A stretch of 61,731 nucleotides of DNA, filler included, from Hausera hauseri (Eukaryota): NCBI GenBank assembly GCA_046269625.1. It is 11 parts of 11 records of this genome, joined end to end, with 100 filler letters (N's around TTAATTAATTAA, not from the genome) between each part and the next. Parts side by side here need not be neighbours in the genome. Positions count along the whole stretch, not along the records: positions 54,844 to 61,731 come from JBJURY010054885.1; 10 more parts are not named here. One strand, 5' to 3'. Numbering within the stretch: position 1 is the first letter of the stretch; each line of letters starts with the position of its first letter. A model generated the notes under the pieces. It had not been told where the DNA came from and searched no databases. It was given only the letters and a program-made list of their open reading frames with translations. Positions 20,178 to 61,145 of the stretch are shown here, piece after piece. The position numbers were made by a program, and so were the translations under genes.

Positions 20178-20190
20178 GAGAGAGAGAGAG
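20138..20190. repeat. (GA)n microsatellite
   Basis: Direct inspection. Confidence 0.95.
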
Positions 20191-22440: not shown

Positions 22441-22577
22441 GTTACAGACAGCTCACTAACCAATCACATTATCACAATTTACTTAAGTCAGTTTCAGTTT
22501 GTCTTGACTTTATAATTCCAGCCATTTCTAAATTTACTGTGATATTTAACTTTCGTTTCTTGACCTGATGTCCACAG

Positions 22578-22797: not shown

Positions 22798-22872
22798 AAT
22801 ATTACACCATTCATTTCAGGATCAGCGTAACTCTATGACCATCATTTATAATGTATCTTTCGTGTATGTACT

Positions 22873-23400
22873 TTGTCATCCATTGTTGTGTCATATTAAA
22901 AAGTGGATTAAATTATCATTATCATCAGCATCCATTCTTGGGAACAGATCATCAACATAACCATTATACGGCGTGCATTGAAGTGCAGCTCTTATAGGGC
23001 AGCTATAGATGCTCATGGCGTTTGGTCTGTCTGCAACTGTCTTCCATGTTGTTTGTATCAGCTTGCACAGTACTTCTCCATTTTGGCTCACGTTGTTCTC
23101 TTCTCTCCTTTCCTCTGCTGACGAACACACCGCGGTTTTGGTCATGCTCATTAGATCTTTCTGAGAACATCTCCCGTTTGCCTCCAGCATTTTTTTTTCT
23201 TTCTTATTATTTTAAGTATGTATTTTTTCATGTGAGGAAGTTCCTGGATTTCTTTATTCAATTAGTTCTGTGTTTTTATTTGCTGGAGTTTTTAAAAAAT
23301 TCAATGAATGTATTGAATTAGCGAAAACATTGACACACATCATTCGAAAGGATATAATCATTATCAGGTACCAGGAACTGCATGCCGTGGATCTTTAAAA
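22873..23400. repeat. Diverged repeat of about 500 bp, duplicated at about 25702-26450
   Basis: Shared blocks such as CATATTAAAAAGTGGATTAAAT, AAGTGCAGCTCTTATAG, GATGCTCATGGCGTTTGGTCTGTCTGCAACTGTCTTCCATG and TATTATTTTAAGTATG. The second copy has an insertion. Confidence 0.8.
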
Positions 23401-26400: not shown

Positions 26401-29345
26401 TCATGCTCTAATCATCATCAGGTGCATGGTACTGCATATTGTGGATCTTTTCTTTTGTAATTTTCTGGTGTTCCCAATTATTTCTGCTTCTGTCTTGGCA
26501 TACCGTGTTTAAACATAAGGAAATCATAGATAATTTGAAACATTATGCAATTCGGAACAACGTGTTGTCGCTTTTGTTTTTTTTTTTTTAAATTTATTTC
26601 GTTGGTGTTCTGCATTTTTGGTGCAATTGTAACAATATGACAGGAGTAGAGGGTAATGTGATTTAGCGTTCACATTTTACCTTGATGCGGGCATTTCTGA
26701 TATGATATACTTGCTTTTTTAGTACGGTACCTAAACACTTCCAAACGATCTAACTCCACTGCAAAATTTACTGTAAAGCCTGAGATAAGAACTATATAGT
26801 GGAACTGTTTTTTAAAATGTTTTTTTTTTTCAATTCTATTGGTGATAGGAAACATTTTTTATGAACTTATACCAGTGGTTAAATTTAACGTTCACGCCGT
26901 TGTTATTGACTAAACAGTTAATGCTTAGTGTAAGTAGATGACTTGTGAAAAGTTTTGTGTTATAGCAGTAACTGAGAAATGAAGAAATCGCAGCCTATGT
27001 CAAAAAAACACCAGTCATGTATAAGGACAATGGTACCCGGTATATCTGGAATCTTAGTAGCAAGAAAGGGCTTTGATTAATAGTCTTCCATCTTGTATCA
27101 TGTTCGCTGAAAGTTTGTAAATCCAGCCCTACATCTCTTATGACTGACATTTACCGTCAAGCTATTTAAATTTATAAAGTAGCGTACTTTCCATTATTGT
27201 GTAAAAAAAATCAGAGCATTTACTTCGTAGCTTTTTTATGGTTTACTTGTTTTATTATGTTGTTCTTGTTGTAATGCAGACATATCAGTGATATCAGTAA
27301 TAAATCTGTAAGTAGAAAGGAGGCAGTTCATCCATAAAGACAATTATATAGTGGAAAGTGGGAAATGATACCGGCACATGATTGGTTTATATTATCAACA
27401 CAACACCAGGTCGTCTTTACTTTCCCATAGAATTTCTCTGGTAACCGTATTTGAGGCTGGATGCCCCCTACGGCCACCCTCCACCCCAACCCCGGATCAC
27501 TGGTACCAACAAATGTAGGAGTAACCTGATAAACGAAAACCACAGCACACAGGACTACAGTCTTACTTAGACATTTACGTGAAATGTCTTTGTGAAATAA
27601 CCAAGAAACACGCTGGACTGACAATACTGAATATGCTCTCAAAGATTGAATGTCGACGTGCTATCAATCTAGCACGGTATTCCGATCAGAGGTGACTCGC
27701 TCCTCTCAGTGCCCAAGAGTAACTCCAATAGTAAATCAACGGAAATACTCGGATTCTTCAATGGTAGATTTGAGTATCTTCCGGAGTAATCCACTTACAC
27801 CCTGATTTNNNNNNNNNNNNNNNNNNNNNNNNNNNNNNNNNNNNNNNNNNNNTTAATTAATTAANNNNNNNNNNNNNNNNNNNNNNNNNNNNNNNNNNNN
27901 NNNNNNNNTGTGTATAAGGTGTATGTTTACATAGGTGAGTATGTGTGTATATATACATAGAATGAGGCATATGAATGTTTGATAAAGCTTGCTGTATATA
28001 GAATTTACGTTAGTCCGTTAATTTGTGGGAGTCTGAGTTTGTGTGGGAAAATATGTAAATGTCTGAAAATGTAAATGTGTGGAATATGAAAATACATGTT
28101 GTGAATGTCATGTAAATACAGCATAACCCTTCTTGATGCTTGGGAAGCCATACATCTAAAAAGAAGTGAAAGAATCAAAGAAAAATGTGAAAATATCAAA
28201 ACTAGAGATACGTTCTACTTAGCAGAAATCATCAGTTCTGCAAAAGCGATCGATACAAGACATTAATGGCACGCTAAAAAGATAAAAGGACCATTTTTAT
28301 ATACAGAAATTATTGGATTATTAAAATTGTCAACCGATATTTAAAGTTACGAATTATACTATAATTACATAATTGTTTAGACCAGGTTCAAAATTGAACT
28401 ATAATGATCATAAATTTATCATGTTGTTTGAGCACGGGAAACGATTAAGCCTTATTCAAATGTAACAAATCTTGGTTGTGGTAATCTTGAAATTAATGCT
28501 AAAGAAGTTGAGATTGAAGAATTTGAGGAAGAATAAAATCGTCTCTTACAGAAATACATTGTTTAAAGAGTCGCGAGAATAAATTGGACCAAAATTATGA
28601 ATCTCTCATCTATCCGTATATCCTAGAGACATTACAATGGTATCAAGATACAAATAAAATTTTGAAGATAAATTCTGTGAGAAGAAAGAGCAAAGATAAG
28701 CAAATCATCGCTCTCTTAGTGAAAATGGGTAACTTGAATAAGTGTTGCATAATACGTTTGAGAATAGTGACAGTCTTTGAAAGAAAACAGCAAACCATAG
28801 TTGTATCCAAAACGATGAAATGGATATATAAAAAATATTCTAAAAATGGCAAGTCTCAATCGTACCCAAAATAATGAAGCTGACAAGTGTAGGAATATTT
28901 TTATCACGTTAATGGGCACAAATTTAAATAATTGTGAAAGAAAGATCATGTTAGAATTAAAATTATTCATTCCTCATTTTAGCAAATGCATTCAGTTCAA
29001 TATCAAATAGATATAAAATATATCAATATACATATATAATGTAACGATATACATAAGTAAATATACACTTAGTGATAAAAATCACTAGAATGATCATCGA
29101 AATTTTGAAAGAATTGACAAATTAAAATTCAAAAAGGAATTTAAATGTATGAAGACAATTTCTGTTTTGGATTATGCCAAAAAACAATATCACGAAAAAA
29201 AGTAAAGACAGATGTGAAATTATTCGACCAGATTCAAAGTAGAAGCGTTCGAATATACAAAGAAACGCAAAGTAGATCTTCAGACTTTAAAATACACGAC
29301 AGAATCGAGATAGAAAGTGTGATGTTATACGAACAATAACCTGAA

Positions 29346-30539: not shown

Positions 30540-31879
30540 GTGATGGCTGTTTTAACGTCATGATATGCAGAGACAAATTGACGGGATAGAAGCAAATGCT
30601 TGAAATGCTTTACCGCTAGAACTATGGCCAGGAGCTCACGATCGAATGTAGAATATGGACTTTATGGTTATGTGAGCTTTCGGGGATAGAATTCTAACGG
30701 CGGGTCGACGCCATTATATATTTGGTGTAAGACCGCACCAGTGGCTGTGGTAGAGGCATCGGTGGTTCATATTAGTTTTGAGTTGGGTTTTGGAAAAGCC
30801 AAGATTTCAACGGTTTTCAGACCTTCACGAAGACGATCAAAATGGTTTACTAGATCGGTATTCCAGTGGATTAATTGTCTTTTCTTCCCGGATGAGAGAT
30901 GTGCGAAAGGTGCCGTTAGTTCGGAGCAGTATGACACGTATTTGTGTACAAAGTGCAGTGTCTCTAGAAAACTCCTCATGTCTGTAGTAGTAATTGGTAA
31001 TGCCACACTTTTCAATTGTTGTAAGCGATCAGGCTGGGCCGAAAGACCTTCGGGAATAATTATGTGGCCTAAGAAATTGACGCGTTTCTGAAAGAAATTG
31101 CATTTGGCGAAATTGATTTGCAGGTTGCTTTGTTGCAATCTGTGGAAAATAATTCTAAGGTGATCATGATGTTGTTTGATCGTTGTGGAAGCGACTAATA
31201 TGTCACCTATGTATGGGTGAGCAAAATCAAGAGCTGAAAGAACGGTGTCAATGTGGCGCTGAAAGGTCTGAGATGCGCTATGTAGTCCGAAAGGCATGAA
31301 GATGTATTTACAAAGACAAAATGGCGTGATGACAGCAGTTTTTGGAATGTCATCAGGAATTTGATGGTAGGCTTTGTGCCGATCAATGGTAGAATAGGTA
31401 TTGGTGTTGTTAAGGCTATCAAGAATATCTTTAATGAGTAATAGTGGATAGGCGTCTGTAATAGTTAGACTGTTTAATTGTCGATAGTCGCCATATGGCC
31501 TATAGGTACCATCTTTCTTTACCATTACATGAAGAGGAAAAGTCCACGGTAAATTCGATCTCCAAACGATGTCAGACTTTTTCAGTTCATTAAATTCCTG
31601 TTCCGCAGCTTTACGCCTGCGCGGCGACAAAGGTCTGACCTTTCGTTTGATAGGTTTCTGATGCTCTGTTACTATATTGTGATAAGTTGTGAATGGAGAC
31701 TTGAAGTTGACGTCCCTTTTAACTGTGCGAAAGCAAAACGTTGTGACGTATTATTTAAGATCGGAGTCTAGAGACAAGAATGAATGAGGCATATTATCGG
31801 ATGAGACAATTGCAGTAATTGACGAAGAACAACCGGCATTGCCACTGTCAATATTCAGTTTGAATTTTTGCTTTAAAAT
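30535..31879 (-). mobile_element. Ty3/Gypsy pol fragment (RT + RNase H), inactive
   Basis: PLHVMVKKDGTYRPYGDYRQLN, KAYHQI, MPFGLHSASQTFQR, catalytic YIDD mutated to YIGD, KCNF..VNFLGH. RNase H TDAS..GAVLHQ..YSTFDRELLA. Confidence 0.93.
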
Positions 31880-31979
31880 NNNNNNNNNNNNNNNNNNNNN
31901 NNNNNNNNNNNNNNNNNNNNNNNTTAATTAATTAANNNNNNNNNNNNNNNNNNNNNNNNNNNNNNNNNNNNNNNNNNNN

Positions 31980-34630
31980 CCTGTGAAGGATATCGTTGAC
32001 TAATGGTAGAGGGTAGGCATCCATTGTTGTTATGGTGTTGAGTTGGCGGTAATCACCGCATGGGCGAAAGATGCCATCTTTTTTTGGAACCACATGCAGT
32101 GGTGAAGACCAGGGGGATTTGGATCTTCTGATTATGCCTGATTTTTCAAGGTCGAGAAACTCAGCTTCCACTGCCTGTCTGCGACGAGGCGATAGCGAAC
32201 AAACCTTTTGACGTATTGGTCTCTGACGTGCTATTACTATGTGATGAAAGGTGGATTAAGGTAGTACAAATGATTTGTCCTTTTGCAACAGACGCGTGCA
32301 GAAGGACAAAATGTATTGTTGTAAATCAGAAGGCAAAGATGACAAGTTATCAGATGGTATCAATGCATCGTGACTGGATGCAGTTGAGGTATGAGTTATA
32401 AATGAGGTGTTGTGACTGGGTGGTATTTGGTGCAGGATGTTCGTCTTGAAGATGGTGTTGGCAGCTGTGTTATTAAAAATAGGTGCCACGCAGTTTTCAA
32501 TATCGCATTTGTCACCGTATTAAAAATTTTTATATAATGAATGATTATAAAAATAATTCAAATCGGAAGTCGTTTTCTTTGGTATCGACGTACTGGACGC
32601 GATCGCCGGGGTGGTCATCGAAATGCTACTGATTTGATTAATATTATTTCCGCTTTTTAATGAACATTGTTTGCAATCTACAAGTAAATTGTATTGGGAC
32701 AGAAAGTCTGAACCCCATACAGGTGTGTGTACATTGGCTACTGTAAATTTCCATGTGAATGTGTTTGTGAAGTGTGGAAGAGTGAATTTTAATTTGGTAA
32801 CTCCAAAAATTTGTAAAGGTTCACCGGAGGCAGTGAACAGTTGCTTTTGCGAAGTGTAATTGTGTTGTATGAGCTGTGTTGGTGGCAGTAGAGAGATTGC
32901 TGCGCCGGTGTCTATAAGAAAGTTTATTTTTTGTATTGTTGGATTGATGACTGCTGCTTCTAACGTGAATACAGCAAAAGAAATGTGTCGCCTGTGTTTT
33001 TGCAGGTTGTTGACTTTGCTAGGACTTGCCGTGTGTCCTAACGGCGAAATTAGTTTTTTGGAGTTGGTGAATTTGGCCTACTGTATTGTGTGAACTTATT
33101 AGTGTTGGTCTTATTGTGTGTGCTGTAGGTGCAACCAGGCAGGAATTTTTGTGCTTTTGTGCCAAATGTTGAGTGGTAGATGCAATCCATGTTGCCTGTA
33201 TTAAAACCAGGAGAATAAAATTTACAACCGACGCAGCATTTCTGAGCATTTTTGCAAAATTTGCTATGATGATAGCAAATTAATGACCGCGCTGGCGAAG
33301 GCTACCGTTTTTGACGTTGATTAAACACATTAGGGGAAGCAGGCCTAGAAAAACCCCGTCTAGGTAGTGTTAATGCGTTTAGTTTGTCGTTAATATTGTT
33401 GATTGTTTTTTGTAATGCTTCATTTTCTGTGCGAAATTGCACAATTTGTTGCTGCAACATTGCATTTTGTTATCGTTGATCTTTTGTCAATGCTGCAGAG
33501 ATAGTTGGTACTGCATGTGAATGCATTACTTCGTATGCCTTGTCTGTCAGTTCGGCTAGCTTGTCAAGTGCCATGGAGTCTTCAACCACAGTTAGCAAAG
33601 CTCTATTTGAAGGGGCAATGCGTTTAAGAAATAGCGACGAAGAAGCACGGGATTGTATTCAGAGGTTACGCCAAGGGTGTTGAGGTGAGACAAGGATGTG
33701 CGTAGGAATTCAGCAGGCTTTTGATGACCCATGGCGTTGTCATTAAAGAACCTTTGAATGATTGAATCGATTGAAGGCTCAGTAAGCTTGAGGACTGCAT
33801 TATAAAGTTGTGTATATGGGTAAGCATGTTGAAATATATCGATTATATTGGTGATTTTAGTTTTCATGGAAGCTGGTAAATGGAAGAAGAGGCTGTTGGC
33901 TTTGGCTAAAGAGTCGACGACATTTTGCGATTGGAGCCAAAATTAGTGCAGTTTTAGCCAAGTTTGAGTAGAGTTTTGGCTGTCGAGAAGATATTCTGTG
34001 CAGGGTGAATGCACAAGGAGGGTGTGTTGTGTTAAAGTGTTTAAAATGCTTTGTTTGGATAAATTTATGATGGGGATCTGCGGCGTGGTAAGTTTCTCAG
34101 TGGTGTCAAATGCGGTTGACGAGTCCATGCCACCACGGATACGGAAATAAATGTGAAGACAGATGCGGGTTGAGGACGATTGTAGTGTTCCAGCGAGGGG
34201 TACTAGAGATCCATTGTATGTGAGGTAGAAATCAGAGGAGTGGAGTAATGTCGAGATAAAGGTGTAAATGGCTGCAGTATGTAAGTGTAATGCTGTGTGT
34301 ATGGATATGTTTGTTAGAACCAGACTGACTAGTTGGGTAATCCGGAAGGCTTGAGGTATAGATAAGAAAGGTGTATATAGTATATATAGAGGTATGTGTG
34401 TAAGAGTGCGTGTGTTTATGTACAGAACGGAGTGAGTAAATGATGACGTTGTATATAGGTATATTGTACATATATTTTTATGTTTATCATGTGAATTTTG
34501 TGTGGAATGAAAATTGTTTGTAGAAAACTTGCGTGCTTGATGATGTAAAATAGGTATGGGAATCCAATATAATGTGTTGTAATTGCTGTAAATAAATAGC
34601 CCGGGTCGACATTCGGGGAATCAGAAGACG
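31980..34630 (-). mobile_element. Decayed Ty3/Gypsy element, copy B (same family as 770-3230)
   Basis: Colinear nucleotide similarity to copy A. Gag MDSS..., protease FLIDTGAAISLLP, RT start SGIIRRSKSPWSSPLHVVPKKDGIFRPCGDYRQLN. Confidence 0.93.
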
Positions 34631-35309
34631 AGAACAACCATTGTTATTTACCATACTAATCGTAATTCTGTTCTATTACTCAATGAATTGTAACGTCATC
34701 AAACGTGGTAATTAGTTACAGAGGATCCACAAGGAATTCATCACATATCAATTCTGAAGGCAATAAATAATAGATGTTAATATCTAAACAGCAAACCCCA
34801 ACTGTATTTAAAATGACGAAAAATATGTGAGAAAAAACAGCTAACCACAATTGTATACAGAACAATAGAAAAAAAGGTTCTGCTGAATGTATTTCAATAA
34901 TGAATATTTCAATAAGAACATAAGAGTCCTCAACACAAAGCTAAACTAATGCAAAGTGTATGAGTAGACATGATTATTTGATAAAACACGTTACTACGTA
35001 CAAAGTTCAGTAAGTCAATTTTAGAAGTACAGTTAAAAGTTAAATTTTCTGAACTAAAGATTCTTGTACAATCTATATGCATTAAATAAGTTGATATAAT
35101 AAACCAGAGTTATCGATATTATTGGAATTACAAAATACAAAAGTTCAAAAAAAGATATTCTGCGGTTGGCATAGTAAAAAATAAAAATTAGAAATTAGTA
35201 CGCTAGACGGAATTTTTATATTAAAAGGAAAAAAAGAGAATCGTTGAACTGCAGATAACGGAAAGGAGAAAATTTGAGTAAGAAGAATTGAATCAAATAT
35301 AAAAGTACG

Positions 35310-35885
35310 ATGAAGGATCATAGTTGTATCAGAAATTTCGGTATATCATTTGTAAGAACGAGAATATCTATTCTACTTGAAGTTAACACATCGATGATCA
35401 CAAAAGATGGTTTAAAATTCGATATGAATCATTTCTCGAGTTTGCAACTGTCGATCGAAGTTATTGAAGATTTCGAACATAATGGAGGTTGGTTAAATGG
35501 AAATGGCAAAGCGATCGTCGTGAGATCTATCTCTGAGAAGGAGTGTGAAACGAGTTGTCGACGTGTTGCGAGGATCTTTCCCAAATTTATTTTGGATGTT
35601 CAACTTGCTAACTATAGAGGTTATAACTTAACGGCGGGATGTTATGTTGGAAGAACGGTAAATCTCATGTTTTCCCGTCAAACAAATTACGAATTTGGTT
35701 CTCTCTCTCCTAAAAGATTTCCCACATTAAATTACAAAGTGATTCATCCAGATGTAATATTTACAATCCTCCGTATAGGCAATGTCTATTTGTCAGGTGT
35801 TAAAAATAACGCTAAAGTAGATGGGGCTTATAAGAAGTTCGATAAGTCGTTGGTCAAAGATTGGAGAGCGTCTTACTACTTCTGA
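35310..35885 (+). CDS. Divergent TATA-binding-protein family member (TBP/TRF2-like), intronless
   Basis: Both TBP repeats align by eye: IRNFGISF ~ LQNIVST; FDMNHF ~ [31 protein letters not shown] ~ [34 protein letters not shown] ~ [44 protein letters not shown] ~ [35 protein letters not shown]. Confidence 0.8.
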   Translation: [191 protein letters not shown]

Positions 35886-42594: not shown

Positions 42595-43920
42595 TCAATT
42601 GGGTCTCGAAATCCTGGTTATTTTGCATGAGGGTTAGTTTATTATTGGTCGACAACAATGGGCATTTCTTCCAAACATGTCCGATTTGATTACAGTGATA
42701 GCAAAATCTATTTTCGTTTATTATACTTACCTGAGTTGAACAGTTTCAAGCTACATGTTCCCATTGTGCACAAACATTGAACTGCTTAGGTTGTTGAATA
42801 TAAGTTGGCATTAATACCGGGATCCTTTTAACTTCTTGGCAGGACTTGGCAATATGTCCAAATTTCTTGCACTGGTTGCACTGGATTGATCTTCTGTAGT
42901 TGACTTTGTCCCTTTCTAACGCCATTGCCTGTTGCTGCGTAACTAGTGATCTAAGGGGATATCGTTTTTGCTGTTCTGGAGGAGTAACCCATTGTGTTTT
43001 GTTCAAATTTGCTCCAGCAACCATGTTTTTAATAGGAGTACCCATTCTTTGTGGTTGTAAATTTGCTCTTATACGTGATTTTACGGTATTTGGGTCAATA
43101 TTGGAAAACAATTTTTGAATAAAGTTTTGGTTAGTGCCAACATTCCAACGAGGCGGACCCCAACGCGGTATCAAAGGAACTTGCCAACCGGCCTGTCCAT
43201 ATGACCACGATGGAGTTCGCCAAGGCTGATTAAATCGCCTAAAATTTTGATTTTGATTTTGAGGTCTAAAGTTACTACTTGAAATTTGATTATTATTAAT
43301 TGAGTTTTGATTAATTTGATTTAATTTGTTTTCTACGTTTTCAAAATTTATAGCTTTTCTTATTAGCTCACTCAGGGTAGAAACGTCACTTTCGATCAAT
43401 TGTCTCTGTAGCTTGGGGCTATTAAGTTCAATGATAAAAGAATCTATCAAAATTGGTTCCATTGCAAAAACCTTAGATGCACCTTTATCATCTTTGGCAG
43501 TATCATCCTTCTCCAATGCTTTCTTATAACGTTTTCCAAGTAATTGAAGGGCGAAAGCAAATTTATTAACAGATTCTCCTGGTATTTGGACTCTAGATCG
43601 TAGACTTCTTAGTTTTGCATTTGAGGATGGATCGGGATCCAGGTTTCTTCTAAGTACATCGACAAATTTATCCCAATTCATTTTCTCCTTTTCCTCAATT
43701 TGCAGATAAGCTTGTAAAGCAATTCCTTCCAAATGTGCAACTAAACGTTTAATTTTCTCCTTATCATTCCATTCTAATCCGTCTGCTTGTGCCGCGTATA
43801 CTAACATAAAATCATCAAATTCCGTGGTTTCCCCGGAGTAACGTCCTAAATTTAGGTTTACAAATGTGGACGTTCTCCGTACTTGCGAATATTTAAACTC
43901 TTCTGTAGGGGTGATAGCAC
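42578..43920 (-). CDS. Gypsy Gag with three CCHC zinc knuckles (middle one broken by a stop at 42746)
   Basis: Retrotrans_gag-like W...K..L..HLEGIAL..Y...R.Q.PGESV..F...L. Knuckles CNQCKKFGHIAKSC, (F)NVCAQWEHVA*NC and CYHCNQIGHVWKKC. The frame ends at G GAA AAC TGA (42578-42587). Confidence 0.88.
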
Positions 43921-44028
43921 TATTTTCAGTAACCTTTCTTATAATATTTTCACTTACGACTACCTTTTCGTCAAGTGACCTCTTCGACTTATTAGCCAGA
44001 CCAGAGAAATTTTAAATTCGAAAATCGT

Positions 44029-50143: not shown

Positions 50144-51275
50144 ATCTAATGATTCTGAAGTTCAAAAATTCATGGAAGAGTTTGAATCAGTAAAGCAAAT
50201 TTATTGTAAAGATGACATTTTAATACTGATGAAACAAGCTTATTCATCAAATCCCCAAATAACATATCTTATATCCAAAAAATGACAGATTGAATATGAA
50301 GGGAATTTCTCAAATCTAGACTAGAATGACAATTTTATTGACTGTAAATGTAAATGGCGATTTTTTAAATACATTAATAGTTGGAACATCAAAAAGTCCC
50401 AGGGCGCTGAAAAACAAGTCTTTGGAATCGATGAACATTTGCTATACGGCAAATAAATCTGCCTGGATCACAAAGGAAAACTTTTTTTCATATTTTCAAA
50501 ACATTAATGAACAAATGAAACAATCAGGGAGAAAAATATGCATCATTTTAGACAATTTTTCAGGACATAAAATTAGTGATTTCACACATGTTAGATTTCT
50601 ATTTTTACCTGAAATTCAACTAATCTTTTACAACCTCTTGATATGGGAATTATTAAGTCATTTAAGGATAAATATTATAATTTTCTTAAAACGGATTTAT
50701 TAAATAGGCAAGGACTTTTGGATATGAATTATTCTAGTTTAATTAGGAAAATAAATATTTATGAGGTTATTATATGGGTATCTCAATCAATCAGACAAAT
50801 TTCACCAGACACAGTTTACAATTGTTGGGTTAAAGCCAAGTTAGTGGATGGGGACAAAATAATGGAAAGTATTAATGAAGACTTACAAAATGGAGAAGAG
50901 GAATCAATTTCTAATGAGATAGAAGAAGTACAAGGAGAAGAACAAGAAGTACAAGGAGAAGAACAAGAGGAGGTACAAGGAGATCAAATTATTGAATTAG
51001 AAGAAATAAAAACTGAACACAAAGATGCAATAATGAAATTAAATGAGCTTGAGGCTATATTACTAGAACATGATCATGATTCTTATGCAGAACTGATAAA
51101 TCTCAAGCAACGAGTAATTTCTAGATTTTTATCTAAGCAAAAAAGAACACTTTGTACAGATTTTTTATTCCAAAATAAATGTATAGTTTTGTGTTGGTTT
51201 TGTAAAATTTTATCGCACCTTTAAGAGTTATCGCACCTTTTGTTAAAAAAGGTGCGATAAGTTCGCATCCCACTG
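50144..51275 (+). mobile_element. pogo/Tigger DNA transposon 3' half (DDE_1), decayed
   Basis: NTDET, RMTILL..N..G, Y.ANKSAWIT, IILDNFSGH, QPLDMGIIKSFK, TV.NCW.KA. Right terminus ..GTTCGCATCCCACTG + TA at 51275 with TATCGCACC subterminal repeats. Internal 21-bp EVQGEEQ repeat at about 50920-50985. Confidence 0.9.
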
Positions 51276-51678
51276 TATTGAATATTGGTTTCCAATCCTG
51301 GGGGGGGCTTTGTACCAATGTGCTCACATCTATCTACTCTCTGATCGCAACATTTTCAAATTTTAAAATTTTAGCAGGTGTGTACTTTTTGTACCGCTAT
51401 GTAAAATTCCATTGAATTCCAATTTTCGGACAGAAATTTGAATTTATCTACTCGGGAAAACCCATAAAATTATCAGAATAATTTTTCTATACTTTTGTTT
51501 TATTCAATAAAAGTAATGTTCATAAATTCTGTGAAACTGATATATTGTCGATAAATTGCTCCGATTATCATTCAAAAGTTAAAACCCAATCTAAAAAAAT
51601 GTTACCATTTCACAATTATTGGTCAATCATCAACCAATGAATTTCAAGTAACAATATAGATTTTCAAATGTTTTACAG

Positions 51679-51910
51679 ACTTCAAAATGTCATTCTAACA
51701 GTCAACCGATGGAACAATTGAGTCATGATGCTTACCCCATATGTGTAGCGTGTCAAGAACTGATAACATATTCTCATTTGTTGAAAGTAGATAACAGTTA
51801 TTGGTATGAGGACTGCCTTCGGTGTAGTTGCTGCAGTTGTCGACTCGATGAAGTCGGATCAACTCTACATACAAGAGCGAATTTACTATTTTCTAAACGT
51901 GATTATCTAG
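51679..51910 (+). CDS. LIM-domain-only (LMO/rhombotin-like) exon with substituted zinc ligands
   Basis: CVACQELI..HLLKV...WYEDCLRCSCCSCRLDEVGSTLHTRANLLFSKRDYL ~ LMO1/3 LIM1. Acceptor ttttacag| and donor AG|gtatgt. Confidence 0.8.
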
Positions 51911-53273
51911 GTATGTTGCGTCCATTTTTAATTGACAATCTCTGCCTTTTATTCTACGTTAATATTAATAATTATTTATTTATCAAATTTATCGTATTAA
52001 ATGGACAATGGATGTTGTCGATTAATAATTTAAATGATAATTTCTTTCGCATTTAATTTGGTCAGTGTCAATTGTTCGATGTCTATATATAGTAACAACT
52101 TTCATTACTTATGAAATTTTGAAATGAATTTAAGACTTCGCAATTTAAAGTGAAGTATTTTGAAGATTTGACAAAGAATTCACGCAGTTTAGTGTATATT
52201 TTTATATAATGAACAACGAGGAGTGACAAAAATATGTTGTATGACTCATTTTGTTGTATTAGTCATGGAACTTATTCACTTTACCTCCCATATAAATATT
52301 TAAATCTTTAGTATGTTTTCTTCAATTTTTCCATCTGCTATTTAGTCATTAATCCGGAGTAGTTGTTCCATCGGATTTAGAAATATTTACACCATTCACC
52401 GAACATTCTCTCCGGTGAACATTAGGTGAATATAACAGGCTTCATAAAACTACAATGTTAATTAAATGTTAATTTAACTTACATTATTTAGATAATATAT
52501 AAATGAGGGTTCAAAAAATTCTAAATGAAATTATAATGCGAAGTCAAATTGCCCAAAGCGGCATCAAATAGACAGCTCTACACTATACAGTTTCTGGGGT
52601 GTTGTTTTTCGAGACTAGATTGAATAGTCATGTTTAAATCCTGTCTAATCCGGAAACTCAAGCAACGCAACTTTACAAAAATTATGGACCAAATTAATGT
52701 TTCGATTCATAAAAAATGTTTACACAATATAAACCATACAAGGATTTAAAACCATGTTGGCTCAATTTGCATCAAAGGCGCCCATGTGAAGCAAACGCGC
52801 AAATATCTTTGTCTTTACGCTTCACTGGTCCATAAGGAGTTAAATAGGTTTATAACAAATAGCCAGAGGTGCAAAATACAATTCTGATTAATAATATGAA
52901 AAAATGTCCGAGAAAGCCCAAATAACACATTTGGAGCTTTTAAATATAACAGCATTTCGCACTTGTTCAAATCTTCCCCACTGTGTTTAGAAATTTTGAA
53001 CTTTTACAAAATTTTCGTTCCATTTCTCGTGCTCATGTTATTTTAAAATTCAAATTAGAATGTTTTTTTGATGTTCTGTCAATATAAAATGTATTGGATT
53101 CATTCACAATAGCATATTCTCTTGAGTATAAATTTTGGCTATCACATGACTGAAGACAGACTATATTCGTAATAAGTCGAATATATATATATCTGCACGT
53201 CTCTCACTATTTGTTATAAAAACTTAGGTTTACGGTAAAATTCGTTTCCTTCTTAGATAGGTTATCAGTAATA

Positions 53274-54185
53274 CAAAGGAAATCCTGAAAGTAATGCCTC
53301 CTCCTTTAACTTTTTTCATTTGTAACTGATTTAGATGAAACTACACAGACATGTACTATATGTTTCTAATCACATGAATTTTTATTTTAAAATTATAATC
53401 AATAATAACATGGATAAAAGAGAAAAGAAGAGTGAAATAACTGAGTCCCTGTAAAAGAGGGATGAGGCTCCAGAGATCCATAGGAGACTCCTGAAAGTGC
53501 ATGGAGGTGCCACAATTGACATAAGTAATGTCCGGAGATGGATGAAGAGGTTTCGAGAGGGAAAAGTTCAGTGGTAGACAAACAGCAGAGTGGGAGACCA
53601 GCAACTGCAGTGACAGGTCTGAACAAACAACATGTGAATGACTTCATTAGGACTGATCGTGGTGTGACTATCCAGGAGTTGTGTGATTTCGTTCACGGTG
53701 GTAAGAGTGCTATGGAAACTTTAATTAGTGATCTCGGCTATAGAAAAATCTGTTCAAAGTGGATTCCAAGATAGCTAACCCGTGAACAATGCGTGGAAAG
53801 GGTGACCGTGTGCCAGAACCTCTTAGACTGTTATGAGAGGGAGTTAGGTTTTTTTCCAATGTTGTGAAGGGGAATGAAACCTGCGTATTCCTGCATGACC
53901 CACAAACCAAACGTCCTTCAATGGAATGACATCGTACTGCTTCACCTTGAAAGAAAAAGTGAAAACAAGTCGGTCCTCATGGAAAGTGATGACAATATTC
54001 TGGGACAGCCAGTGTCATTTTTATTTATCAATCACCAGACATTAAAAAAGTTAAAGAAGGCTATCCGAAAGAAAAGACCTGACATTCCACTTAATAATGT
54101 TGTCTTGCATCATGATAATGCACGACCGCACAACTCAATGGAGACGTCACAAGCAATAGCTGCAATGGGGTGGACTGTGATGCCG
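53274..54185 (+). mobile_element. mariner-family transposon, decayed; a further mariner C-terminal remnant at about 54570-54743
   Basis: TA + CAAAGGAAATCCTGAAAGTAATGCCTCC terminus. IHRRLLKVHG..VRRW..RF, SGRP, LGYRKICSKWIPR*L, GNET (GDET), LHHDNARPH. Confidence 0.88.
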
Positions 54186-54843
54186 AAATGTAATTTGCTT
54201 TTTAATATTATTACTGGTTGTACTTTGGATGTTGGATCACGTATGTCTTTGGATATTATCGATGAGGACAAAATCAAATATCCTCTCAATTATCTCACCA
54301 ATGACTCATCCATGGGTCATATGCAGCCTAGACGTCCAGTTATAATTAATGAAAACGATGCACTTTGGACTTTTGTCAGTTTATGTGAAACAGCTATAAG
54401 AAATCGTTGTGCATGTGACATTTTCAACACCAATAATCAATCCTCCATCTCGAATATTCATTTATGAATTGCATGCAAAGTATTTAAAACGCTGCGGAAC
54501 GAAGTGGACGCCCTTCTTCAACCACAACTGATAATAACATTGAAGGGGTGGCATTGCCAATACAGGAAAATATGATTTGTCTTTAAATATCTTGATAAAC
54601 GTCGACAGCGTATGAACTTTGCTGATGATGAAGAATTAAAGACATTCCTTTCGAAGTTCCTTCGCGGCATCACTAAAGATGAATGGAGCTGACAATTTGA
54701 AAGTTGGAAAACTGATCTGCAGAACATTATTCAAAATGGAGGTNNNNNNNNNNNNNNNNNNNNNNNNNNNNNNNNNNNNNNNNNNNNTTAATTAATTAAN
54801 NNNNNNNNNNNNNNNNNNNNNNNNNNNNNNNNNNNNNNNNNNN

Positions 54844-55053
54844 TTTGTGGGCTGTACTCACTATCGTGGGCCCGTCGAGCGGGTGGTACTTACCTTTGCG
54901 GGTGGTACTTATCTTTGTGGGCGGTACTTACTTTCGTGGGCGTGTCCAGCGGGTGGTACTCACCTTTGTGGGCGGTACTTACCTTCATGGGCGTGTCCAG
55001 CGGGTGGTACTTACCATTGTGGGCGGTACTTACCTTCGTGGGCGTGTCTAGTG
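54844..55053. repeat. Minisatellite (about 19/32-bp subunits, about 51-bp higher-order unit) with 8 GTACT(T/C)AC(C)-type cores
   Basis: GGGCGGTACTTACCTTTGT and GGGCGTGTCCAGCGGGTGGTACTTACC units. Confidence 0.9.
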
Positions 55054-55600
55054 GGTCCACCAGTCCACAGGGAAGTCTCTTTGGAGCAGGGAAGTATTTC
55101 TTTAAATTGAGGTAAGTGTTTAAGGTCAGTACCTCACCTCAGACCCGGAGATTAATTGTTTGCAGGGGTTAACTTTAGAGTTTAGGGGTCATGTGGGCAA
55201 ATTATCGATCCGTTTTTTCTTTTAAATTAGTATGGGGCGTCAAATTCTGGGGTTATTTTTTTGGAAAATGTGGTCGGGGGGGACGATGGATGGCCGTAAC
55301 ACATCACAGGGTTAATATGAGGCGATTCCTCCCTGGGGTTAATGTCAGGGTTGGCAGTCAGGGTGGGGGTTAAAATTTGACCCAAAGGGGTTAATATGAG
55401 GTAATAATATAATAATATAATAATATAATCAGGTTAATATTAGGTATAGATAATGACCATGAACATAGTGCAGGTTATAATAAGTGATTATATTAGTAGT
55501 GAAGACAGCCATAATATCAACAATATAATAATAAGTTAATAACAGTACCATCCATAGATTTTATTTCAGTATTTATTTATTTATTTATTTACTTATTTAT

Positions 55601-57817
55601 TTATTTTTCATTTAACCCCTTAGGTGTCACTGTGTCCAGTTTGGAGATCCAAAGTCTCTCAGCTCTCCTCCTCTGGGCGAGTGACCAGGTGGGATCACAT
55701 TCTAAGATGGTGGCTTTTACAGATTCCCACCCATGAAGAATAAAATGCTGGACCAGAGGTGTGTGTGTCTCTTTCTTTTTATTAATGTTATGTCTGTGTT
55801 GTGTAAATCTCGTCAGCAGTGTGTTCCCAGTCTCTCCCACATATTGGGCTCCACACTGCTGACATGAGATAAGATACACACAGTTTCTTGTCCGGGAGCA
55901 CCCCCTGCTGGCCGTTTTGAAAATTGTTTTATTATATTTGTTTTGGACCCATCTCAGTTGTTTGAAGAATTCCTGCTGACCTTTGACCTTCGGCGTGGTG
56001 AGCGGCTTTAACTTGGCATGTACCAAGTAATCCTTCAGATTTTTATTCCTTCTATATGCCCCAATGATTCTATGATCCAATAGGAGTTGGCTTTCTTTTT
56101 GGAATTTTTCAAAATTAATTTTAATGTTTTTAACTAATTTCATGGCAGATGGAGAATAATTAGTTACAAAAGGGATAATGGCCTCCACAGCAGTTGGTTT
56201 GGTCAGCAGGAATGTCTTCAAACACTTTCTCAGGAAGGACCTCGAGTATCCTCTCCCGGACAGAGCTGAAAACAACACTTTAGTTGCAGTTTTAAAATCT
56301 GACTGCTGTGTGCAAATTCTGTGAAATCTTAACAATTGGGATTTGATAAGTCCTGCATAGGTGTGCTTGGGGTGAAAACTACTTTTGTATAATAGGGCAT
56401 GTGTGTCTGTGTCCTTAAAGAAGACTTTAACGTCCAGGACGTGTGTGTCTTTAAAATTTGGGCCTTTGAATGTGGTGGTGTCCAGAAAATCTACAGATGT
56501 GAGGTGTGTGGTGGCTTTAAGTTTAATGGATGGGTTGTGTGTGTTCAGTGAGTCCAGGAAAGTCTCGAAGTCCCTCTCTGAGTGGGTCCACACACCCCAG
56601 ATGTCATCCAGATACCTATAATAGAAAAGAGGTTTTTTCTCACACCTCTCAAGGGCTGACTCCTCCCACAAAGCCATAAAGATGTTGGCATAGCCAGGTG
56701 CAAACTTTTTACCCATGGCAGTTCCCTTTATTTGTAAGAAATATTCATTATTAAATTCAAAGTCATTTTTTGTCAAATTAATTTCTAATAGTTGGATTAG
56801 CTCCTTCTCAGGTCTCGAACTGCATGGATATTTTCTAAATATGGTTTTCACTGCCTCAATTCCTTCATTTATAGGGATATTAGTGTACAGGCTCTCGACA
56901 TCCATTGTGAAGAGGATCGCATCGTCAGGTAAGTGGATATTTTTTATTTTATTTACAAAATCATATGTATCTTTAATATAACTATTGTGTTTTATAGATA
57001 GAGGAGTTAAATAATAATCAATAAATTCAGCTGTATAATAGGTTTCACTCCCACAATCTGAGACGATGGGCCTCCCACTGGGCACTTCAAAGGGTCGAGA
57101 CCAAGTACTGGGTTCCTTATGGATTTTAGGCAGTAAATAAAACCTTCTGGCTCTGGGCTCCTCAGAGCCAATTAAGTACTTTCGCTGTTTAGCATTGATA
57201 AACTTTTTAATATATAAGTTATTAATAATTTTAGTGATAAGGGGTATAGTTTCTATATAGATAGGTTTGGTTAGTTTAGAATAATAGTGAGTATTATTAA
57301 GTTGTTTATATCCTTCATATAAATATTGATCTCTATCCATAATTACTATAGCGCTCCCCTTATCTGCAGGTTTAATAATAATGTTTCTATTGTTTAATAG
57401 TTCTTTAAGAGCCAAGGTTTCTTCTTTATTTAGATTAGGTTTATTTTTATATAATTTAAAGTTTTTTTGAAAATAATCCATGTCATTTTTTATTAGGGTG
57501 GAGACCTGAGGAGGGAGTCTGACCAACGCTGGTTCCCAGCTGGATTTGGGAGTAAAAGGAGGTATGTCTGTGTTGTTATCATCTTTATAATAAACTGCTA
57601 GTTTGATTCTTTTATGGTATTGTTGTATATCATATTTATTTTGTGCTAGAATGTTATTATTATTATTCCCTGTAGAGGGGACAAAGGTTAAGCCTTTATT
57701 TAGTAAGGTTAACTGTGCACTTGTTAGTTTGAAAGTTTTAGACAGATTAATGACATTTTTATTCCCCTCCTGTGAGGACAGGCTTGTGGGGAAATCTATT
57801 TTAAATGCTGCATCCAA
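55601..57817 (-). CDS. PLE reverse transcriptase + C-terminal GIY-YIG endonuclease (ORF2; listed start is TTG, probably expressed by -1 frameshift)
   Basis: VINLS..L...LL.KGLTF.P, IIKPADKG, FYLLPKIHK, GRPIVS, MDVESLYTNIP, GTAMG..FAP.YANIFM, YLDD, DFLD, AYRRNKNLKDYLV, CVYLISCQQCGAQYVGETG..L..RF..H...H...H, E..WI..L....P.GLN. 738 aa without interruption. Confidence 0.96.
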   Translation of the reverse strand: MDAAFKIDFPTSLSSQEGNKNVINLSKTFKLTSAQLTLLNKGLTFVPSTGNNNNNILAQNKYDIQQYHKRIKLAVYYKDDNNTDIPPFTPKSSWEPALVRLPPQVSTLIKNDMDYFQKNFKLYKNKPNLNKEETLALKELLNNRNIIIKPADKGSAIVIMDRDQYLYEGYKQLNNTHYYSKLTKPIYIETIPLITKIINNLYIKKFINAKQRKYLIGSEEPRARRFYLLPKIHKEPSTWSRPFEVPSGRPIVSDCGSETYYTAEFIDYYLTPLSIKHNSYIKDTYDFVNKIKNIHLPDDAILFTMDVESLYTNIPINEGIEAVKTIFRKYPCSSRPEKELIQLLEINLTKNDFEFNNEYFLQIKGTAMGKKFAPGYANIFMALWEESALERCEKKPLFYYRYLDDIWGVWTHSERDFETFLDSLNTHNPSIKLKATTHLTSVDFLDTTTFKGPNFKDTHVLDVKVFFKDTDTHALLYKSSFHPKHTYAGLIKSQLLRFHRICTQQSDFKTATKVLFSALSGRGYSRSFLRKCLKTFLLTKPTAVEAIIPFVTNYSPSAMKLVKNIKINFEKFQKESQLLLDHRIIGAYRRNKNLKDYLVHAKLKPLTTPKVKGQQEFFKQLRWVQNKYNKTIFKTASRGCSRTRNCVYLISCQQCGAQYVGETGNTLLTRFTQHRHNINKKKETHTPLVQHFILHGWESVKATILECDPTWSLAQRRRAERLWISKLDTVTPKGLNEK
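57762..57805 (-). promoter_or_regulatory. Predicted -1 programmed ribosomal frameshift signal
   Basis: Slippery U_UUA_AAA (57805-57799) in the ORF1 frame just before its UAG, 5-nt spacer UAGAU, then hairpin UUCCCC-ACAAG-CCUGU-CCUC-ACAGG-A-GGGGAA. The -1 frame is ORF2. Confidence 0.75.
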
Positions 57818-59931
57818 TGCTCAAACATGCAAATAGCTGTACCTTTGGACCAGTGAATGAGATCTTTCTCAGTTCTAAAGCTCTCTTGTAGAAGAGGGAT
57901 GTGGTGATCATACCCCTGGATTGTAGAGTTGAGTCTCTCCAGGAGGTCCTGATCCCTGCGAGGGAGGGAGGTGGAGAAGTTCACCTGAGGGATGAAGATC
58001 TGTGCTGCTGGTAGTTTCCTCATCGCCGTGGCAACAGCCTCCTCCATCTCCGCGACCACAGCCTGGAGGCTCCTCTGTGACCTGTCGTTGAGGCCGAAGG
58101 AAAGGACCAGCTTCTCCACCTCGCAGTCCACCTCGACCGTCCGCAGCAGGTGGGTGGCGTGCTCCCATTTGGCTCCTGCGAAGCTCTCCACCTGGAGGTC
58201 GGATCCATCGTAGGTGGGAAAGCGTGCCAGGTTGGAGTCTCCCACGATGACGTGTTTCTTGTTGATGTGCAATTTCCACTCCAGTTTCTTGTCAAACCTG
58301 GCGATGTGCTTGATGGGCCTAGTCATCCAGGGTGAGGAGGTTTCAGCCTGTGGTCCTGATGCTGCGGCCCCCGGTCTGGGCCTGATGAGTGGGCTCCCCG
58401 TCAAGGTCGTTTGGATGCAGGAGCGCCGCAGACGTCCCATCGGCTCCTCCAGTGGTGGGGTGTTGAAGGTGTAGTCCCCCAGATCTATGAGGTCCAGGTC
58501 CTCCTGGTCCTCCTCCTCTGCTGCCGACAGTCCATGATGCTGGGGGGTGGACGTGGTTGGAGAAGGAGATGTGGAGATGGCGGTCAGCTCACCTTGTGGC
58601 GTTCTCTGAGGTAAGGGAAGAGGCGGGGTCTGCTTTTCCTGTGGGGTCTCCGGTGTGATGAGGGGCCCCCCTTGTGAGGAGGATTGTGTGGAGTCCCCGA
58701 AGGCTGTTGTCCCCACTCTATCAGGCGACCAGTCACTCCTTTGGGGGTCAGTCATTGTCGCCATGTCCAGCAGGAGGCGAGCTGGAGTCCTGATGAAGGG
58801 GATGACAGGTGAGAGCTGTACAGGATTCTGCTCACCTGGTCCAGCTGTTGGTGAAGGGCTGGATGTAGGCTGGTTTTGTGCAGGAGAAGGAGAGGGGGAT
58901 GATGAGGATGATGAAGATGATGATGATGAGGAAGAGGAGGAGGCAGGATCAGTCCTCCTGTCTGGCCCACCTGGCGATGCTGGTGTTGGTGCAGGGGGGG
59001 AGGAGGAGGGTGGTGGAGAGGAAGGCCCCGTCCCCCTGGGTGGCTCATCTCCTGCAGGGGTTGTGGTCTCAGGGCCAGACCTCAGGAGCCTCTCCACTTC
59101 ATTTAGGGTCTCCTGCTTGAGACGCCTGCCCAGGTTCCTTCTGGCCCACTTGGTGGCAATTTGGAGAGGGCCTTCCAGGTCCACAAAGGCATAAAGTGAC
59201 AGGTCACTTAGTTCCTTGCAGATGGCCTGGTCGTAGTGTCCCTGCAGGATCTGCATGGTTGTGTGGGCCCAGTTGTGTGCATTTAATTCAATAAGGGACA
59301 GGGTGTTGTGGGTGGGGTTAGCAGGTTTAATTACAGAGGTCAGCTGGTCTTGGATCCTCTGCACAGCTGGTGGAAACTCACTCTTTGCCACGTTTGCAGA
59401 GTGATGAACAGCTTTGATCAGTCTGTGGATTGATCTGATCTTGTCTGTGAAGTGTGGATCATCACTCTGGATCGGCTGTGAGCGCTGGGTGGGGGGGCGG
59501 GGGGGGCGGGGTCTGTTGCGGGGTACATACCGCTGTTGTTGTCGGAATCTTGGCTGCCCGCTGCGGTTTCTGAGGGGCCTCTGTCCCCGGTTGCGGCTAG
59601 GATCAAGGCGCCGCTGATCAAAGGGGCCGCGGCTCCAGAAGCCGCCACGATCGACGTCATCCGGGGATCTCCAGCGGTTTCCCCGTTGCTGGTATCGGCG
59701 TGTGCTGCCGCGCCGGTCGCGCTGATCTCGGCCCCTCCGCGGGTAGCTGTGGTCCGGTCTGCCCCTCACCACCTCCGCGTAGGTCCGCTGTCTCGGCCGC
59801 GGCTCGGCTCGGCGCGGCTGTTCCCAGTGGCGTGGATTGGAGCTCCGGTTCCGGAAGCGTGGACGTCCTGCGTTGGGGTTGCTACGCAACCCGACTCGGG
59901 TCCAGCTGGGAGAACGGTCCCTCCACGGCAT
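57796..59931 (-). CDS. PLE ORF1: Arg-rich N-terminus, helical domain, Pro/Ser-rich linker, C-terminal SGNH/GDSL hydrolase
   Basis: 711-aa ATG-initiated ORF. SGNH blocks: I VIVGDSNL, II FAGAK, III SFGLND, V DLIHW (Ser-Gly-Asn-His plus Asp all present). Confidence 0.85.
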   Translation of the reverse strand: MPWRDRSPSWTRVGLRSNPNAGRPRFRNRSSNPRHWEQPRRAEPRPRQRTYAEVVRGRPDHSYPRRGRDQRDRRGSTRRYQQRGNRWRSPDDVDRGGFWSRGPFDQRRLDPSRNRGQRPLRNRSGQPRFRQQQRYVPRNRPRPPRPPTQRSQPIQSDDPHFTDKIRSIHRLIKAVHHSANVAKSEFPPAVQRIQDQLTSVIKPANPTHNTLSLIELNAHNWAHTTMQILQGHYDQAICKELSDLSLYAFVDLEGPLQIATKWARRNLGRRLKQETLNEVERLLRSGPETTTPAGDEPPRGTGPSSPPPSSSPPAPTPASPGGPDRRTDPASSSSSSSSSSSSSSSPSPSPAQNQPTSSPSPTAGPGEQNPVQLSPVIPFIRTPARLLLDMATMTDPQRSDWSPDRVGTTAFGDSTQSSSQGGPLITPETPQEKQTPPLPLPQRTPQGELTAISTSPSPTTSTPQHHGLSAAEEEDQEDLDLIDLGDYTFNTPPLEEPMGRLRRSCIQTTLTGSPLIRPRPGAAASGPQAETSSPWMTRPIKHIARFDKKLEWKLHINKKHVIVGDSNLARFPTYDGSDLQVESFAGAKWEHATHLLRTVEVDCEVEKLVLSFGLNDRSQRSLQAVVAEMEEAVATAMRKLPAAQIFIPQVNFSTSLPRRDQDLLERLNSTIQGYDHHIPLLQESFRTEKDLIHWSKGTAICMFEHWMQHLK

Positions 59932-60136
59932 GTTGGTTCCGGGTTTTGATTTAAAATATTTATAAAAAAAATGTTTTAAAAGTTATAAAAAAAATGTGAA
60001 AAAGGACTGGATTTTTTTCTTAATTAAAAGGTGGTTTAGTTTGTGAAAAAAGAGGCTTTGAATTTTGCGAACTCGCACTTTAATAAACGATTTTTTTCAA
60101 AAAAAATGGAACAATAAAAGTACAAAAATACAAAAA

Positions 60137-60195
60137 CAAGCTTTTCGCAACGTTTCGGTTATATTAAACCTTCTTCAGGCAAATGAAAAAGCTTG
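60137..60195 (-). ncRNA. Minimal type I hammerhead ribozyme motif (PLE-type)
   Basis: CAAGCUUUUUCAUUUGC-CUGAAGA-A-GGUU(UAAUAU)AACC-GAAAC-GUU-GCGAAAAGCUUG. Conserved CUGANGA/GAAA cores, stem II GGUU/AACC, palindromic AACGUU stem III and an extended stem I. Confidence 0.8.
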
Positions 60196-61145
60196 ATAAA
60201 TCAGGTAAATACCTTCAAAGTCCACCAAGAGTCCATCAGACGGTGTACAGGCAGTGAACAAGCGGTTACAAGCAACAAGCAGTTTTAAATTCGCCGCTGA
60301 TTGCCGGCGTCCGACGTAACCAGTCCCAGCCAATCATGTGGGCCGAACTCTGTACATTTAAATTCCATTGGCTCCACAGTGGCAAACAAAGTTTTTTTTC
60401 CTTCAACAACAACTCAAATTTGAACTTAAAAAGAACTCCGTACAGTATCCATGGTAACAAGAAAAAACAAAATGCAGAAACGAATCTTAACATCCGGTTG
60501 GACTCAAATAAAACAGGAAGTGGTTTCAAAATAAAAGCACAATATTTACAATTTGCAGTTTCTATACAGAACATTTGAAAAGGTTACAGAACATTGTAAG
60601 AACCATAATAGAACATGAAAAAATATATTTTACTTCCTGATTAGGTTTATAAAAAAAAAAAAAAAATAAAAAAGTATTTACATAATTCTTTTTCACCCTT
60701 TTAAAGAAAGATATGTATAATATTTATTTAGGTGCACAGTTTAGTTGTAGTTTTTGTTGTTTTTAGTATATTTATTCATTTAGATATTTGGAAACCAGCA
60801 ATATTTGATATTAGGATATTCTTATAAATTATTTAATTTGAATTAATTTTGTTCTATTTGTTGTTCAATTTACAGGGAGGAGGAGTCAGGTTTTCTCAAC
60901 TTCCAGGTATCTTTCAGACATCTTTCAAATACTCAAGGATCCACCAACAATATTTTCCAGGTAAGTCATGTTTAATTCTGTTTTACCTTTTCTCTCAGAT
61001 GGACCCTGAAGGGCTGATGGGAGCAACTGGAGGCCGAGACAGGAGGCACGGGCTGGATTAGGATTAGGGAAGGAGGAAGTTCCGGCGCCGCAGGCGTCGG
61101 AACTTCTGTGCACAGTCCATCACTGCCTCAGTCCTCACCGCCGCC

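Follow-up and report, generated by a model that had tools for sequence, protein, structure and literature searches.

The analysed window, a stretch of 61,731 nt taken from the Hausera hauseri genome assembly GCA_046269625.1, is made up of 11 short contigs with a fixed spacer between them (at 6494, 10935, 17560, 27809, 31880, 36601, 40900, 45810, 50044 and 54744), and features standing side by side in it are therefore not genomic neighbours. The whole last contig (54844-61731; JBJURY010054885.1) is occupied by a Penelope-like element (PLE) with two overlapping open reading frames (ORFs), of which ORF1 encodes an Arg-rich protein ending in an SGNH hydrolase (esterase) domain and ORF2 a reverse transcriptase (RT) with a C-terminal GIY-YIG endonuclease (Table 1). 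To judge from the sequence of the junction, this Neptune-type, endonuclease-bearing (EN+) PLE is likely translated in a gag-pol-like manner, by a -1 ribosomal slip at the heptamer U_UUA_AAA. An earlier, sequence-only reading had described a 711-amino-acid ORF1 overlapping an uninterrupted RT and GIY-YIG frame of 738 amino acids, within an element spanning 55601-59931. ORF1 and the overlap, which measures 25 nt, were found as described, and ORF2 is indeed uninterrupted, with a stop-to-stop length of 739 amino acids; the proposed span holds for the ORFs but not for the element, since the hammerhead ribozyme motif and the pseudo-long terminal repeats (pseudo-LTRs) extend beyond it.

Table 1. Position of the features of the Penelope-like element in the 61,731-nt window.
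Feature	Position	Strand	Remarks
Upstream pseudo-LTR	59932..61731	-	3' end and full 3' untranslated region (UTR) of a tandem upstream copy; to the window end
Minimal type I hammerhead ribozyme motif	60138..60194	-	Core at 60178; pattern scan
ORF1	57796..59931	-	711 amino acids from ATG, uninterrupted
Arg-rich N-terminus	59482..59931	-	Predicted disordered; 44 Arg in the first 150 residues
All-helical domain	59080..59451	-	Residues 161-284, conserved; AlphaFold2 and homologue alignment
Pro/Ser/Thr-rich linker	58315..59079	-	Predicted disordered, unconserved
SGNH hydrolase domain	57799..58314	-	Residues 540-711; catalytic S566, G586, N615, D690, H693
Slippery heptamer U_UUA_AAA	57799..57805	-	Directly before the ORF1 stop codon
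Predicted stimulatory stem-loop	57762..57793	-	5 nt past the heptamer; -13.3 kcal/mol
ORF2	55601..57820	-	739 amino acids stop-to-stop, uninterrupted; PLE N-terminal motifs, RT, GIY-YIG
Downstream pseudo-LTR	55054..55668	-	Last ~22 ORF2 codons and 3' UTR; ends before the hammerhead
51-bp tandem repeats	54844..55044		At the end of the contig, next to the element's truncated 3' end

Junction of the two reading frames

Relative to ORF1, the reading frame of ORF2 is shifted by -1. No start codon stands at the 5' end of ORF2, whose first Met is residue 114, after the conserved N-terminal motifs; in relatives the first Met falls anywhere from residue 26 to residue 200 of the RT frame. The last two codons of ORF1 form the heptamer U_UUA_AAA, and a bulged hairpin is predicted behind it; among 712 codons, heptamers of this kind occur in frame just twice. 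A search for a pseudoknot here found none that was convincing, the sole second stem being weak, 5 bp long and in competition with the inner hairpin. In retroviral and LTR-element gag-pol frameshifting, a slippery heptamer is followed by a spacer of 4-8 nt and a stem-loop, and a structural ORF stands upstream of an enzymatic ORF at -1. The heptamer, spacer, stem-loop and ORF order are shared by the window element, which however carries pseudo-LTRs and not LTRs. The frame offset is not an assembly error, because a contig of sequencing run X2 (depth 470) spans the junction with no differences and no gaps, and a second contig, 85% identical, also crosses it without gaps.

For the comparison of junctions, 23 metagenome loci were fetched with the ORF1 alignment, and one more (L024) was found by its RT alone. 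Four loci in which the esterase end is missing or broken (L010, L020, L022 and L023), and then L019, were left out before the counts by group, for which the loci were collapsed to 12 groups at <75% identity, the window included. A heptamer ending in A_AAC or A_AAU closes the esterase in 18 of the 19 loci read, and its A_AAZ half is present at the junction in all 12 groups. The Leu/Val codon of the junction ends in UA in 12/12 groups as against 25/173 synonymous codons elsewhere in the domain, a figure which is not a true probability because the groups share ancestry. Synonymous sites between the groups are saturated (proportion of synonymous differences 0.82-0.90), so the codon pattern is unlikely to have been inherited passively, although the groups are not independent of one another. 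The downstream 45-nt windows fold more stably than their shuffles (mean z -1.4, combined z -4.9 over the 12 groups), with the C-rich and G-rich hairpin arms swapped in L008, L012 and L015; of the 11 groups that have an RT, 10 have it in the -1 frame. The first junction of L024 combines U_UUA_AAC with a hairpin of -22 kcal/mol. At the protein level, the conservation of ORF2 starts at the slip site: of 119 RT homologues examined, 31 have a predicted start that extends to this site, and 30 of these show x-K-[LIHR] there, the Lys being the residue expected from -1 reading. ORF1 homologues have L at 710 in 122/148 rows and N or K at 711 in 135/148 rows with a residue there, and most of them end within 4 codons beyond position 711. 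Moreover, a gene model of Esox lucius (P0217) joins ORF1 to ORF2 at the same L-N.

Several observations weigh against frameshifting, the common ancestry of the groups among them. A perfect X_XXY_YYZ heptamer is found in only 5/12 groups, the remainder varying at the first base or reading G_GUA_AAC; G_UUA_AAC is a natural frameshift site in an arterivirus. The window hairpin is modest (z -1.9), as 45/1000 shuffles and 46/2175 windows of ORF2 are equally stable, and the fold z is weaker than -1 in three of the 12 groups (L003, L007 and L012). In L014 the RT is in frame 0 behind a stop, the degenerate esterase end of L019 has no heptamer, and L013 has the heptamer yet diverges right after the junction, with no RT within the next 1.2 kb. 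Nevertheless, a -1 programmed frameshift signal is recognized by an X_XXY_YYZ heptamer in the upstream frame, with the second ORF at -1, and by a stimulatory structure 5-9 nt farther on; the window element has the heptamer and a predicted hairpin at +5, with related signals in its relatives, and frameshifting is likely because ORF2 lacks an early Met and lies in the -1 frame behind a conserved heptamer followed by stable folds. The gag-pol-like organization proposed by the sequence-only reading, which named no mechanism, thus gains a conserved candidate signal.

Alternatively, ORF2 might be translated separately, either by termination-reinitiation, as in the ORF2 of long interspersed nuclear elements (LINEs), or from a non-AUG start, in which case the junction RNA would be a reinitiation signal or a signal for the RT or packaging. 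The clustering of ORF1 stops 0-4 codons past the heptamer fits stop-coupled reinitiation, the conserved hairpin could have other roles, and some heptamers are imperfect. However, a start codon that is both conserved and in frame is lacking close to the junction, where the ATGs of the window and of L001 are in frame 0. The offset is almost always -1, and conservation falls precisely on the bases that would pair again once the ribosome has slipped by -1, which makes separate translation improbable. A far smaller chance is given to an intron near the junction, the splicing of which would join ORF1 to ORF2 or supply a start codon. Gene models P0217 and P0130, the latter joining the esterase to the middle of the RT, do fuse the two proteins, but automated gene models often bridge frameshifts. 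Introns are retained in PLEs (PMC8557442), yet both proteins are conserved right to the overlap, which leaves no room for an intron.

Protein domains and their linkage

The Arg-rich head, helical segment and Pro/Ser-rich linker attributed to ORF1 by the sequence-only reading were all recovered, the helical segment as a predicted six-helix domain and the linker as a region predicted to be disordered. The AlphaFold2 model, built from 118 aligned sequences, is confident for the six-helix and C-terminal domains and treats the remainder as disordered; the esterase modelled from its single sequence reached a predicted local distance difference test score of only 41. The helical domain is common to 99 of 100 ORF1 homologues of at least 550 amino acids, and it gave no family match and no usable match in the ESM Atlas. 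The SGNH motifs reported earlier are present as GDS566, G586, GxN615 and D690xxH693. In an alignment of the query with its best 150 homologues, the catalytic S is conserved in 147 rows, the G in 149, the N in 143, the D in 145 and the H in 146. Pfam detects Lipase_GDSL_2 at the C-terminus with E 1e-3, below the curated cut-off, and 960 relatives of the esterase (50%-identity clusters) were found at E ≤0.001. The SGNH fold, also expected from the earlier reading, is supported by the alignment-based model and, in agreement with it, by Foldseek and the VIA fold search: all family-named rows among the matches listed are SGNH-type hydrolases, and the best VIA match is PAF-AH (Z 18.2, root-mean-square deviation 2.7, 167 residues aligned). 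The only PDB sequence match of the domain is the esterase of the ZfL2-1 ORF1 protein (4C1B), with E 0.34. No RNA recognition motif (RRM) was matched in ORF1 by Pfam. By its modelled SGNH fold, in which S, G, N, D and H are all intact, its Arg-rich character and the lack of an RRM match, ORF1 resembles the esterase-class, ZfL2-1-like ORF1 proteins.

In ORF2, Pfam assigns residues 289-428 to RVT_1 (E 1e-6) and 646-730 to GIY-YIG (E 5e-10), and the YLDD motif of the RT lies at 56614. The endonuclease has the CCHH arrangement, composed of a CxxC within the GIY-YIG core and two downstream His. The linker between RT and endonuclease has no CX2-5CxxC finger in the window element or in any of the 116 sequences (121 examined) whose endonuclease core could be parsed, but the finger is present in the distant esterase-linked locus L020, which suggests its loss in this lineage. 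ORF2 had no PDB sequence match, and Pfam gave no Gag, protease, RNase H or integrase match in the ORFs of the element.

The two ORFs are associated well beyond the window. A PLE RT lies directly downstream of the esterase, on the same strand, in 19 of the 23 metagenome loci; three of the others (L010, L016 and L019) stop within 470 nt past the esterase, which leaves L013 as the one true exception. L024 contains two units arranged head to tail, and in both the esterase precedes an RT that lies in the -1 frame. This locus comes from a Candidatus Epulonipiscioides record, a bacterial single-cell genome, and is presumably DNA of the host fish. In the closest informative pair (L002 and L005), the ratio of nonsynonymous to synonymous substitution rates is 0.20 for the esterase, 0.14 for the helical domain and 0.11 for the RT, and the esterase and RT identities of 11 loci are correlated (Spearman 0.80, 0/5000 permutations). 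The ORF1 domains and the RT thus appear from sequence comparison to be under purifying selection, with esterase and RT divergences that track each other. No relatives were found among viral contigs. That an unrelated LINE ORF1 or a host gene came by chance to lie upstream of a single-ORF PLE, as the ZfL2-1 esterase being the only PDB sequence match of the esterase domain and the GC content of 59% in ORF1 versus 37% in ORF2 might suggest, is already refuted by the linkage data, together with co-divergence, selection and the same layout in L024 and in a published Fundulus Neptune contig. The coupling of ORF1 to the RT claimed by the sequence-only reading is therefore upheld, and neither of the outcomes that it had named as fatal, ORF1 homologues unlinked to PLE RTs or the lack of an SGNH fold in structure prediction, was encountered.

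On the frameshift model, most ribosomes would stop after the 711-amino-acid ORF1 protein, making it abundant, and a minority would slip by -1 at U_UUA_AAA ahead of the hairpin to produce an ORF1-RT-endonuclease fusion of ~1,443 amino acids. By analogy with the ORF1 protein of ZfL2-1, the abundant product may bind element RNA through its Arg-rich head, self-associate through the helical domain and engage lipids or membranes through the esterase, so that RNA binding, ribonucleoprotein assembly and lipid targeting would be its roles. The fusion would carry the RT into the particle, and insertion would take the course known from other PLEs, with a nick made by the GIY-YIG endonuclease and target-primed reverse transcription of tandem-derived RNA. 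A broader scenario, which must be regarded as doubtful, is that an undescribed large fish PLE lineage (the 960 esterase clusters) has converged on the retroviral strategy, with the -1 frameshift setting the ratio of Gag-like esterase to fusion and membrane-associated particles aiding movement between cells, between fish species or into parasites.

Comparison with known elements

By every feature tested except the single-ORF layout, the element is an EN+ PLE: RT and C-terminal GIY-YIG share one frame, and the CCHH arrangement, the pseudo-LTRs and a minimal hammerhead motif are present. EN+ PLEs are described as single-ORF (PMC6431247), whereas two overlapping ORFs are found here. In EN+ PLEs the two Cys of the CCHH lie between GIY and YIG, and the CX2-5CxxC linker finger defines Neptune (PMC8557442). 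The element is Neptune-like, yet it lacks the linker finger of Neptune.

Esterases are not new in such elements. A Penelope esterase from a sponge, Neptune1_Ren, is already in an alignment of Schneider 2013 (PMC3905857), and esterases of canonical Neptune-like PLEs of fish and molluscs are named in Rodriguez 2017 (PMC5408684), so the novelty implied earlier for an esterase ORF1 in an endonuclease-bearing PLE does not stand. These PLEs have the same terminal SGNH esterase in the upstream ORF and bear an endonuclease; they figure only in alignments or a sentence and were compared by description. The accessible parts of both papers contain no frameshift signal, helical domain or family description. 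A published member of this family is the Fundulus Neptune repeat.CL27 (PMC12602865, 2025), which is similar to Repbase Neptune-2_GA and whose RT groups with Neptune subfamilies in the authors' tree. Read by eye from the supplement, its contig has the same helical-domain and esterase motifs as the window element, G_UUA_AAU before the stop, the same bulged hairpin with the inner pairs changed, and the same hammerhead type ~200 nt upstream of ORF1. In the accessible parts of that paper, ORF1 is 420 nt long and without similarity, ORF2 begins at an internal ATG, and the esterase and the frameshift go unrecognized.

Outside PLEs, a parallel is the ORF1 protein of ZfL2-1 (CR1/L2; PDB 4C1B), which shares the Arg-rich motif, a helical region (serving for multimerization in ZfL2-1), a linker and the C-terminal SGNH esterase and matches the window esterase in Foldseek with E 3e-4; identity between the two is 16%. 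Its dimerization, hydrolysis and phospholipid binding were shown in Schneider 2013 (PMC3905857). However, ZfL2-1 is a LINE with an apurinic/apyrimidinic endonuclease, and the window element differs from it by a predicted six-helix domain in place of a simple coiled coil and by the -1 overlap of ORF2. Athena/Terminon PLEs, in which no endonuclease is fused to the RT, share an ORF1 upstream of the RT, hammerheads and GDSL ORFs; in the window element a GIY-YIG is fused at the C-terminus of ORF2, and the predicted stimulator resembles a bulged hairpin. A frameshift with a pseudoknot is mentioned in one published PLE figure legend, presumably with reference to Athena. According to that legend (Fig. 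1 of Craig 2021, PMC8557442), ORF1 is separable by the frameshift; the clade is unstated there, and the statement may cover Neptune. No description of frameshifting in esterase-bearing Neptunes was found in the literature searched, a scope outside which Repbase, Dfam and Arkhipova 2017 (Terminons) lie.

The combination of an esterase with a PLE was already known, and the family-wide frameshift signal may be new. The signal bears on how RT is produced by two-gene elements of the non-LTR type, and the element also bears on the role of transposon esterases; the frameshift, if true, would represent gag-pol-like control outside LTR elements, in an intact, high-copy EN+ PLE. The results also correct annotation, as ORF1 of this PLE family is filed as mucin-2 in Austrofundulus (P0003) and appears unassigned in the 2025 killifish Neptune paper (PMC12602865). 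Moreover, ORF2 is routinely begun at internal ATGs, which drops conserved motifs and matters for cloning the enzyme. A distant ORF1-like protein (P0007) has a NADAR domain (E 5e-11) inserted ahead of its SGNH esterase and is possibly a retroelement ORF1 with a second enzyme.

Untranslated regions

The downstream pseudo-LTR is 86% identical over 622 nt to 61146-61731, which gives a period of ~6.07-6.09 kb. A head-to-tail joint (61140 to 55077) occurs in run X2, and L024 has a full tandem. The predicted hammerhead cut lies ~217 nt upstream of the ORF1 ATG, and the pattern scan found the motif in 7/23 loci in sense and in none in antisense, with varying stem II sequences, and in 3/300 shuffles; L024 has one such motif too. 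In L006 and L007 the hammerhead is downstream of ORF2, which indicates that here it is part of the 3' UTR of the upstream tandem copy, i.e., of the pseudo-LTR. Rfam returned no hammerhead or other credible family at E ≤5. Minimal hammerheads are known in PLE pseudo-LTRs (PMC4209133), and the window motif matches them; for an anole PLE, hammerhead cleavage was not required in vitro (PMC11167929). In run X7, 60181 is joined back to 55646, and loose ends occur where the hammerhead core has its edge (60181-60182), which is possibly a preferred end of copies. The 51-bp tandem repeats are also found downstream of ORF2 in L003 (3730-3945) and may represent either a target site or a portion of the UTR. 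Apparent splice signals in antisense (60960-61205) were considered and rejected, as they are not enriched across loci (13 antisense versus 10 sense donors).

Origin of the contig

The contig carrying the PLE is most likely derived from fish, with host-fish DNA in the assembly as the simplest reading. Host-fish contamination is likely because the PLE stands on its own contig, the named relatives of both its proteins are all teleost (Austrofundulus, Nothobranchius, Oryzias, Tachysurus and Esox), and another contig looks flatworm-like. The latter holds a divergent cullin-3 fragment (4309-5321, minus strand, two frames), 58% identical to trematode and Macrostomum proteins, which groups with flatworms in a tree (97/95), at the end of a long branch, and shares only 56-57% identity with the cullin-3 of fish. 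The observed-to-expected CpG ratio and GC content of the PLE contig are 0.53 and 44%, as against 0.97-1.19 and 33-38% in 8 of the 10 other contigs; two others (17660-27808 and 50144-54743) have CpG ratios of 0.67-0.73, and most contigs of the window are AT-rich. The PLE contig may be a collapsed multi-copy sequence.

Near-identical words of 55601-60600 were found in the contig sets (455-1590 Mb) of 24 organisms, with 29-92% of the sampled words in each, and could reflect horizontal transfer or carry-over between samples; no RNA data set was listed among the sources of these words. Among four sequencing runs, read depth over the element is at least 400 throughout in X2, uneven in X7 and mostly below 20, in short pieces, in X14 and X24; word sharing among the 24 organisms therefore does not establish horizontal transfer. 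Integration into a flatworm-like genome after recent horizontal transfer from fish would agree with the shared words and with the presence of the flatworm-grouping cullin-3 fragment in the same assembly. However, no flank ties the PLE contig to the other contigs, its composition is unlike that of most of them, every named relative is teleost, and the depth contrast between X14/X24 and X2 fits carry-over, so that such an integration is considered unlikely.

Other features of the window

Two degenerate LTR retrotransposon copies, 81-94% identical, lie on different contigs (892-3069 and 30770-34620, minus strand), and further pieces of this kind are found at 11213-11641. An ORF at 42749-44011 contains a CCHC knuckle; from their motifs, we take the copies and pieces to be Ty3/gypsy-like and the ORF to be gag-like. 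Three plus-strand features were named in the same way: what is presumably a TBP-like ORF at 35292-35882, a fragment taken to be LIM-domain-like at 51652-52053, and a presumed decayed mariner-type transposase at 53529-54743.

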